NCBI RefSeq assembly: GCF_013167455.1
Contig: NZ_CP038328.1
DNA: 64,000 nucleotides
Direction: 5' to 3' (one strand)
Origin: Escherichia coli O157:H7
GTDB taxonomy: Bacteria; Pseudomonadota; Gammaproteobacteria; Enterobacterales; Enterobacteriaceae
The notes beneath the pieces are model-generated. The model worked only from the letters and a program-made list of their open reading frames with translations. It had not been told where the DNA came from and ran no database searches. Both the position numbers and the translations under genes were made by a program. Shown here piece by piece: positions 3,041-4,326 of the stretch. Positions within the stretch are counted from its first letter, which is position 1. Every line of letters starts with the position of its first letter.

Positions 3041-3520
3041 TTACCTTGCACAATGCATTATTGCTCTGTTACCAATGCTCAAAATAAAAGCATGCTTACC
3101 TTGCTTTAGTATATTATAGCTTACACTTTTTTCTGGAAAGACATAAAAATCAGGAATAAGTTCTGCAAGTCTATCATCATCGACTTGATCCATAATCTCA
3201 AACTTATTAACTTTCTTTGATGTTAAATGGGCTGTGTCATAGTTTTCAACCCATGTGTATTCAATATTTCGCCGTATTGATTTACTTTCTCTGTTACCTT
3301 GTTGCCAGGTTCCACTCAACGCAACAGTTCCTGTTTTATTTTTTTTGTTATACATAAAGTCTATGGTAAGATTTGCTCGTCCCTGGTCATTAAAAATTAC
3401 CCAATTTGCAGTGCATGTTTCGTTATATATCATTTTTTCTGCAGTGTAAGAATAGACAGTGAAGAGAATAAACCCACTGATAAAAACTAAAATAAATAAT
3501 AAGTTTTTTTTTATAATCAA
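3041..3520 (-). CDS. yqeJ: hypothetical membrane-anchored periplasmic protein (possible ToxS-like partner of YqeI)
   Basis: 159-aa ORF; N-terminal hydrophobic segment LLFILVFISGFILFTVYSY; start overlaps the yqeI stop (3517-3520). Confidence 0.6.
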   Translation of the reverse strand: MIIKKNLLFILVFISGFILFTVYSYTAEKMIYNETCTANWVIFNDQGRANLTIDFMYNKKNKTGTVALSGTWQQGNRESKSIRRNIEYTWVENYDTAHLTSKKVNKFEIMDQVDDDRLAELIPDFYVFPEKSVSYNILKQGKHAFILSIGNRAIMHCAR

Positions 3521-4326
3521 CCACGATTAACCTCACGGTAAGACAGGGTTAAACAGCCTGCCACTTCATGTTGGTTATAGTTTTTATTGCATGCCATAAC
3601 AATCATCCCCGGTGAGGATTTTGCAAGAGGGAAGTATAACCACGGATATTTTTTGCAGTTAATCCCCGAATCCAGTATCCGTGTTTTATATTTATCGAAC
3701 TCTTTCAACCCATCAATTGTATCTTCTGTTACATTAAAATGGCAGCCATTAATTTCTGCAACAGTCTTGTAATCCTTGAAAAATGGCTTCGGTTGATTAT
3801 TATTCCATAGCCAATATGCAGAATATGCGCCTATGACAAATGCGCTCAACATAATTAGATAACTTTTTATATGTTTGAGGATTTTGTTATTGAAATTCTT
3901 TGCGCCACCAATGCTCTCTTTGTATCCCGCATTAACTTTTATGGCAGGTGGGGCATTGTGTGTATGTGCGTCTGTTGATGAGTTTATTACATGATTTTGT
4001 ATGTTAATGTCATTATGGATCTTGAATCCTCTTCTCGGCACTGTTGCAATAAGCGAGTGGGTAGTATCACCAACAGCGCGAAATCCGCGTCTGATAATGG
4101 ATATGTTCTGATATAACGTGTTAGTAGGCACACGCATACCTTCTTCTTCCCAGACTCTGGTGAAAAAATCTTGTTGTGCAACCACATCAGGAAAAGCTTC
4201 AAGTAGCAGTGATAAACAACGACTGGCTGGCGTTGTCAGAACGACGTTAAGATCGGCGTTATGTACCGATATTAATTTTCGGTGCTCAGGCCAGAACTCG
4301 ATATTATCGTTAATAATCCAGTACAT
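3517..4326 (-). CDS. yqeI: ToxR/CadC-like membrane-bound winged-helix transcriptional regulator
   Basis: 269-aa ORF; N-terminal OmpR/ToxR-type winged helix (…TVPRRGFKI…), one predicted transmembrane segment (YLIMLSAFVIGAYSAYWLW), C-terminal region with four Cys. Confidence 0.8.
   Translation of the reverse strand: MYWIINDNIEFWPEHRKLISVHNADLNVVLTTPASRCLSLLLEAFPDVVAQQDFFTRVWEEEGMRVPTNTLYQNISIIRRGFRAVGDTTHSLIATVPRRGFKIHNDINIQNHVINSSTDAHTHNAPPAIKVNAGYKESIGGAKNFNNKILKHIKSYLIMLSAFVIGAYSAYWLWNNNQPKPFFKDYKTVAEINGCHFNVTEDTIDGLKEFDKYKTRILDSGINCKKYPWLYFPLAKSSPGMIVMACNKNYNQHEVAGCLTLSYREVNRG

Follow-up and report, generated by a model that had tools for sequence, protein, structure and literature searches.

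The yqeI-yqeJ gene pair of Escherichia coli O157:H7 as a probable ToxR/ToxS-type transmembrane signalling cassette

The yqeI and yqeJ genes of Escherichia coli O157:H7 lie on the minus strand of a 64,000-nucleotide stretch of DNA (RefSeq assembly GCF_013167455.1, contig NZ_CP038328.1; hereafter the window), among the neighbouring genes yqeH, yqeK, yqeL, ygeF, ygeG and ygeH that mark the edge of the ETT2 island (type III secretion system 2 of E. coli). In our reading, the two genes form a ‘co-component’ cassette for signalling across the membrane, of the same kind as ToxR/ToxS and VtrA/VtrC, and we put the probability of this reading at roughly 85%. The initial annotation of the locus had proposed the same ToxR/ToxS layout, and the domains, topology, YqeJ fold and gene order described below all agree with it. 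It had also held that this layout tends to go unremarked at the locus, a view that the literature contradicts. The ToxRS-like reading is supported but already known, having first been published in 2022 and repeated since: Kinch et al. (PNAS 2022) listed YqeI/YqeJ, with its ‘YqeJ lipocalin’, among the candidates for co-component systems (PMC9214523), a 2023 survey of transmembrane transcription regulators listed YqeJ as the partner of YqeI (PMC10269533), and a 2026 preprint on ToxS named ‘YqeIJ’ among the co-component regulators (PMC13042144). The research agenda that follows from this reading, namely the ligand and the regulon, likewise goes back to Kinch et al. (2022) and has been followed in later papers. 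Here, we add an independent fold assignment against ToxS structures released in 2023-2024, counts of synteny, and a correction of the start codon and gene overlap in O157.

Window positions 2900-4500 are 100% identical to E. coli O157:H7 chromosomes, and the RefSeq annotation of the identical sequence places both genes at the coordinates given in Table 1, with the product names ‘winged helix-turn-helix domain-containing protein’ for yqeI and ‘protein YqeJ’ for yqeJ. Of 5426 complete E. coli genomes, 3730 carry the locus, and 3598 have at least 80% of it at 95-100% identity.

Table 1. Genes, protein segments and translation signals of the yqeI-yqeJ locus, in window coordinates.
Feature	Position	Strand	Basis and remarks
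yqeI coding sequence, 269 aa, ATG start	3517..4326	minus	Open reading frame and RefSeq; membrane-anchored ToxR-type transcription factor
YqeI winged helix-turn-helix, residues 28-102, cytoplasmic	4021..4245	minus	Pfam PF00486 Trans_reg_C
YqeI transmembrane segment, residues 155-174, SYLIMLSAFVIGAYSAYWLW	3805..3864	minus	Single hydropathy peak, KD19 about 1.45
YqeI periplasmic domain, residues 176-269 (94 residues)	3520..3801	minus	Cys195, Cys224, Cys246, Cys258
yqeJ coding sequence, 159 aa, TTG start	3041..3520	minus	Open reading frame and RefSeq WP_000584457.1; predicted ToxS/VtrC-like partner
YqeJ membrane anchor at the N-terminus, residues 6-25 (helix 3-29 in the model)	3446..3505	minus	KD19 = 2.26; Lys4-Lys5 before
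YqeJ predicted periplasmic eight-stranded lipocalin-like barrel, residues 34-158	3047..3421	minus	Cys36 and Cys157 on first and last strands
4-nt overlap TTGA, yqeJ TTG start and yqeI TGA stop	3517..3520	minus	Read from sequence
A9 homopolymer, yqeJ codons 3-6	3504..3512	minus	Alignment; A8 in K-12 (codons 5-7)
GAGG Shine-Dalgarno-like motif in the yqeI 3′ end	3531..3534	minus	Read from sequence; putative function

Architecture of YqeI and YqeJ

YqeI sits in the inner membrane, with a ToxR-type winged helix on the cytoplasmic side, a single membrane segment and a small domain in the periplasm. Trans_reg_C was the sole domain matched in a Pfam scan (E = 4.1e-9), with no receiver domain, and a phmmer search of the PDB returned the DNA-binding domain of Vibrio cholerae ToxR as the best match (8b4b/8b4c, E = 1.6e-7, residues 2-103), followed in rank by PhoB and CadC. 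Against NCBIfam, YqeI gave sub-threshold matches only, to CadC, VanR and PhoB. The transmembrane segment is preceded by the Lys-rich stretch KNFNNKILKHIK, and its position is hydrophobic in 22 of 22 aligned homologues; by the positive-inside rule, the N-terminus of YqeI is predicted to lie inside and the C-terminus outside. The OmpR/ToxR winged helix, single transmembrane segment and cysteine-containing tail that the initial annotation assigned to YqeI are thus borne out by the Pfam and PDB matches, the hydropathy profile and the four periplasmic cysteines.

These cysteines are unequally conserved. Cys246 and Cys258 are invariant across 21 aligned YqeI/YqeJ pairs. In the homologue of Salmonella enterica subsp. 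diarizonae (locus L007), the equivalents of Cys195 and Cys224 are both Tyr, and the last two cysteines are retained. Because Cys195 and Cys224 were lost together in this lineage, the alignment suggests that the disulfides of YqeI pair as 195-224 and 246-258, and the joint loss also supports the 195-224 bond being dispensable there. A periplasmic disulfide in YqeI, together with a conserved disulfide in the YqeJ barrel, was noted by Kinch et al. (PMC9214523).

YqeJ had been described in the initial annotation as a 159-residue protein with one N-terminal anchor and two periplasmic cysteines, and this description stands: hydropathy places the anchor at residues 6-25, the positive-inside rule gives it an orientation that makes YqeJ not predicted to be cytoplasmic, and the protein has two cysteines in all, Cys36 and Cys157. 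When 1.84 billion representative proteins were searched with a profile, 111 relatives were recovered at E ≤ 1e-3, nearly all of them 150-165 residues long. Across an 85-sequence alignment Cys36 never varies, and conservation of Cys157 is at least 90%. YqeJ alone had no match in NCBIfam or in the Pfam copy that we scanned, a copy that lacks PF27292; this family (YqeJ_C), part of the newer Pfam, is assigned in precomputed annotation to members of the YqeJ cluster and to all distant representatives examined.

An AlphaFold2 model of YqeJ built on the 85-sequence alignment (mean predicted local distance difference test score [pLDDT] 93.5, predicted template modelling score [pTM] 0.79) consists of the N-terminal helix, eight beta strands and one short helix. 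When this model was compared with solved structures using Foldseek, the top matches were V. parahaemolyticus ToxS (8u2f_A, E = 3e-4), V. cholerae ToxS (8alo_B) and ToxS again (8u2f_B), with VtrC (5kew, 5kev and 8dml) close behind and lipid-binding lipocalins, including retinol-binding ones, after that. Sequence identity in the superpositions on ToxS and VtrC was 6-12%. In the model, YqeJ is anchored by its helix, and its predicted exposed part is a lipocalin-like barrel of eight strands, closed by the two nearly invariant cysteines, whose fold is that of ToxS and VtrC; the relation to ToxS for which the initial annotation proposed a structure prediction is thus found at the level of fold. We rejected YqeJ as a member of the ToxS sequence family, for which there was no Pfam ToxS match and no PDB profile match; YqeJ is a member of the VtrC/ToxS superfamily at the fold level.

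Conservation of the gene pair and its periplasmic complex

The pairing of yqeI with yqeJ extends well past E. coli. Using a 10-sequence YqeJ alignment as the query, a scan of one genome per species returned 13 enterobacterial loci with YqeJ relatives of 39-70% identity, from Escherichia whittamii, another Escherichia species, Citrobacter, S. enterica subsp. diarizonae, Kosakonia, Klebsiella oxytoca and Trabulsiella. All 13 also had, immediately upstream and in the same orientation, a gene for a full-length YqeI homologue (40-72% identity) that overlaps or abuts the yqeJ relative. More distant representatives of YqeJ_C gave a similar picture, with a gene for a Trans_reg_C protein of 258-294 residues immediately upstream in seven of eight cases; the two genes of these distant pairs abut (with a 6-nt gap in one) or overlap by 4-14 nt. 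The two-gene arrangement is not a product of chance and is conserved far beyond E. coli, and yqeI and yqeJ are inherited as a pair.

The neighbourhoods of the distant loci hold further observations. The eighth YqeJ_C gene lies at positions 2501-2983 of locus L019 (GCA_045575435.1), with about 470 nt of apparently non-coding DNA upstream and a gene for a CSS-motif/EAL protein convergent downstream; CSS-motif/EAL genes also occur near the pair in locus L021. Distant YqeI/YqeJ-like cassettes often adjoin adhesin genes, encoding a two-partner-secretion haemagglutinin (L016), an autotransporter (L018) or fimbrial subunits (L024 and L025). This recurrence suggests that adhesins are a recurrent local target of such cassettes, echoing the position of MarT/FidL beside the misL autotransporter gene.

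To model the periplasmic parts of the pair together, we built a single chain of YqeI(176-269), a Gly/Ser linker of 30 residues and YqeJ(27-159), which AlphaFold2 modelled with 21 naturally paired alignment rows as input. The model had a mean pLDDT of 80.2 and a pTM of 0.75, with pLDDT below 50 only at construct residues 93-127, a disordered 35-residue region containing the linker; about 87% of the chain belongs to the folded parts. A pTM of about 0.5 would be expected for arbitrary placement of the two domains, and 0.75 is near the ceiling for two rigidly placed ones, which suggests that the modelled halves form a defined complex. Kinch et al. report dimeric complexes of the periplasmic domains of YqeI and YqeJ on co-expression (PMC9214523). 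The YqeI half is predicted to contain two strands, a helix and three strands (in construct numbering, strands 12-17 and 20-25, helix 33-44, and strands 54-58, 65-71 and 83-89), an order that, compared by description, agrees with the core of two strands, a helix and three strands set out for VtrA and ToxR in PMC9214523. When PDB structures were searched with the fused model, the listed matches came from the YqeJ half only and none from the YqeI half.

The same results bear on whether YqeJ might instead be a secreted or cleaved lipocalin that acts apart from YqeI and merely shares its operon. A signal peptide is in principle possible for the hydrophobic N-terminal segment, which is followed by a small residue, Ala27. 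However, the segment is a hydrophobic stretch of about 20 residues within one continuous model helix, as is typical of an anchor, and the residue at -3 before Ala27 is a Tyr, which by the -3/-1 rule would be disfavoured by signal peptidase I; a cleavable signal peptide was judged unlikely on these two grounds. Paired synteny in 20 of the 21 loci examined, the high pTM of the fused model and the reported co-expression complex also speak against independent action, which we regard as extremely unlikely.

Start codons, genomic setting and the possibility of decay

The two genes overlap and are translationally coupled. The initial annotation had given the overlap as 4 nt with the sequence ATGA; the length is right, and the sequence is TTGA, since yqeJ starts with TTG and not with ATG. 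In K-12, yqeJ starts with GTG and overlaps yqeI by 8 nt, GTGATTGA. Kinch et al. class YqeI/YqeJ among the cassettes without the usual overlap, whereas RefSeq annotation gives these overlaps of 8 nt in K-12 and 4 nt in O157.

The difference in start codon traces to a homopolymer. Because O157:H7 has A9 instead of A8, the K-12-type GTG is out of frame there, and its frame meets a stop after 33 codons; full-length O157 YqeJ is obtained only from the TTG, 4 nt downstream of the GTG. The resulting N-termini are almost alike, MIIKKN in O157 and MIDYKKN in K-12. The next in-frame Met is residue 30, and a start there would delete the membrane anchor. The GAGG motif within the end of yqeI stands 10 nt before the O157 TTG and 6 nt before the K-12-type GTG. 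The 159-residue O157 allele occurs on at least 1000 contigs and is therefore a fixed lineage allele and not a sequencing error. The A8/A9 difference has been published as a microsatellite marker that separates K-12 from O157 (PMC11186120); we found no account of how it affects the start codon.

The two out-of-frame yqeJ start codons (window 3504-3524, minus strand; K-12 counterpart at 5300-5325 of locus L002) leave a loose end of some novelty, which is whether the A8/A9 tract tunes or switches YqeJ synthesis. Under such a scheme, the tract would act as a slipped-strand dial, in which A8 would give the GTG reading and A9 the TTG reading, both yielding full-length YqeJ, and A7 or A10 would abolish YqeJ; phase variation would then set the YqeJ:YqeI ratio, or turn the partner off, by lineage or subpopulation, and so tune a ToxRS-like sensor. 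We consider this highly improbable.

By composition, yqeI has a GC content of 40%, yqeJ of 32% and the first 5.5 kb of the window of 33%, against 50% for the whole window. At finer grain, positions 1-5500, the ETT2 edge, have 30-37% GC against about 50% elsewhere in the window, and the transition falls at about 5.5-7.5 kb, spanning yqeG and reaching into yqeF. This AT-rich segment is horizontally acquired DNA. A K-12 fragment from yqeG to ygeL that covers the locus has been taken as a model for silenced foreign DNA in the form of an H-NS/StpA ‘chromosomal hairpin’ (PMC12460168), and expression of yqeI-yqeJ in laboratory E. coli and under laboratory conditions is probably low, the DNA being AT-rich and H-NS-silenced. 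A promoter and terminator consensus scan around the operon found 14 promoter-like sites against 14.8 expected in shuffled sequence, and we claim no promoter.

This setting raises the question of whether the pair is an evolutionary remnant, a silenced and decaying piece of ETT2 that no longer signals in either O157:H7 or K-12, and whose ToxRS-like architecture is a matter of history. Decay would fit the low GC content and the H-NS/StpA hairpin, the degeneracy of ETT2 in many strains, the ygeF and pbl pseudogenes that adjoin the locus in K-12, the frameshifting A9 tract at the O157 yqeJ start, rescued only by a weak TTG, and the existence of truncated or fused yqeJ alleles (P0003 and many partial entries); deletion of yqeI in K-12 also gave no growth phenotype on glucose or mannitol. 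Yet both reading frames are intact in the window, and neither the retention of most of the locus in 3598 of the 5426 genomes nor the number of contigs with the 159-residue allele is what decay would leave. Protein identity of 40-70% across genera, with the cysteines and the overlap kept, indicates purifying selection, and in avian pathogenic E. coli a yqeI deletion has clear phenotypes, namely lower flagellation, motility, serum survival, adhesion and organ colonisation (PMC7552227). On balance a remnant without function is improbable, and we retain the reading of yqeI-yqeJ as a signalling cassette.

Three side observations concern the island edge. In some E. coli strains (protein P0003 of E. 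coli E22, ‘o94’), YqeJ continues after its first 140 or so residues, in frame, into a lytic transglycosylase segment (SLT, PF01464), which looks like an ETT2 deletion that joined yqeJ to a downstream pbl-like gene. The equivalent of ygeF, an annotated pseudogene in K-12, is an intact open reading frame of 163 residues in the window (1546-2037, minus strand), where it carries the O157:H7 name ‘hypothetical protein’. Finally, yqeL, a reading frame of 26 codons (MKDVDQNFDALDCHILREYLILLFYD) annotated in both K-12 and O157, lies at 2928-3008 on the plus strand, convergent with the 3′ end of yqeJ, and the stop codons of the two genes are 32 nt apart.

Proposed signalling and comparison with known systems

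By analogy with VtrA/VtrC and ToxR/ToxS, the periplasmic C-terminal strand of YqeI would dock onto the YqeJ barrel, and the heterodimer would form or gate a hydrophobic ligand pocket. The candidate ligand is a bile salt or another host-derived lipid, or more broadly a hydrophobic cue from the host or the environment. Binding would stabilise or oligomerise YqeI, such that its membrane-tethered winged helices could bind promoter DNA and alter transcription. If this is true, E. coli, K-12 included, carries a periplasmic small-molecule sensor of the ToxRS/VtrAC type linked to the cryptic ETT2 island, and its ligand and regulon could explain the influence of ETT2-linked regulators on flagella, adhesion and serum resistance in pathogenic strains.

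A more modest role for YqeJ has to be weighed against this scheme. In the classical manner of ToxS or TcpH, YqeJ might shield YqeI from periplasmic proteolysis and bind no ligand, with YqeI or some other protein serving as the sensor. No ligand is known, and the two conserved periplasmic cysteine pairs of YqeI could themselves sense redox or pH. A protein that acts purely as a stabiliser is nevertheless hard to square with a predicted lipocalin-like barrel whose nearest solved relatives are VtrC and ToxS, both of them bile-salt binders in crystal structures (according to the titles of 5kew, 8dml and 8alo), and for which retinol-binding and other lipid-binding lipocalins are the next Foldseek class. 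We consider stabilisation without ligand binding fairly unlikely, if the most credible of the alternatives.

Several points count against yqeI-yqeJ being a ToxRS-like signalling cassette. Some concern descent: a Pfam scan of YqeJ and 85 family members gave no match to the ToxS family, PDB sequence searches with two profiles at E values up to 10 matched no ToxS or VtrC chain, and common ancestry of YqeJ and ToxS accordingly rests on fold, topology and gene order. Others concern the pair itself, in that interaction between YqeI and YqeJ is drawn from a summary pTM of a model and a published statement, and one of the eight distant YqeJ_C members is an orphan without an adjacent transcription factor gene. 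As to expression, the O157 yqeJ start is suboptimal, being a TTG at 10 nt from the GAGG, and the region, at 32-40% GC and an example of H-NS-organised silencing, may be silent. As to function, the study of yqeI in avian pathogenic E. coli makes no mention of yqeJ, and no ligand, DNA site or direct target of YqeI/YqeJ is established in the literature.

Comparison with characterised systems places these points in context. ToxR/ToxS of V. cholerae and V. parahaemolyticus shares with YqeI/YqeJ the membrane topology of both proteins and a partner gene immediately downstream; among solved structures the YqeI winged helix is closest by sequence to ToxR, and the YqeJ model is best matched by ToxS. YqeJ differs from ToxS in having 9-12% identity in the structural alignments and no detectable sequence similarity, and the pair as a whole differs in the disulfide-positioned cysteine pair of YqeJ, typical of the FidL/YqeJ group, and in the four periplasmic cysteines of YqeI. 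In addition, the C-terminal helix described by Kinch et al. for both ToxR and VtrA is missing from the modelled periplasmic domain of YqeI.

VtrA/VtrC, the V. parahaemolyticus bile-salt receptor that controls type III secretion system 2, is also a two-gene cassette, and it too is linked to a horizontally acquired type III secretion island. Sequence identity to it is 6-8%, VtrA has no periplasmic disulfide (PMC9214523) whereas the YqeI cysteines are conserved, and bile binding is for YqeI/YqeJ an analogy. CadC, a one-component ToxR-like sensor of acid and lysine, resembles YqeI in its N-terminal winged helix, one membrane segment and disulfide-bearing periplasmic sensor, and is matched by it weakly (NCBIfam CadC, E = 3.7e-4; PDB 5ju7, E = 0.018). 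The periplasmic sensor of CadC is, however, large and made of two subdomains, CadC has no downstream barrel partner, and YqeI scores 19.5 bits against an equivalog cut-off of 400 bits.

The remaining comparison is with MarT/FidL of Salmonella pathogenicity island 3 (SPI-3) and with GrvA/FidL, a paralogue in O157:H7. The settings differ, MarT/FidL lying next to misL in SPI-3 and YqeI/YqeJ in the ETT2 island, as do the outputs: MarT/FidL activates the misL autotransporter gene (PMC9214523), whereas the outputs of yqeI in avian pathogenic E. coli are flagella, adhesion and serum resistance. YqeJ also falls below the threshold of FidL_like in the Pfam copy that we scanned and has its own newer family, PF27292 YqeJ_C. 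All three systems combine a ToxR-like winged helix, a membrane segment and a periplasmic domain with an overlapping second gene for an anchored barrel of about 160 residues and two cysteines. The UniRef name of O157 YqeJ is ‘FidL-like protein’, some YqeJ family members have weak Pfam FidL_like matches, and our search recovered the pair of S. enterica subsp. diarizonae at 40% and 39% identity. Kinch et al. treat YqeI/YqeJ as an orthologue of MarT/FidL and a paralogue of GrvA/FidL, with overlapping clusters of FidL-like and YqeJ-like sequences (PMC9214523).

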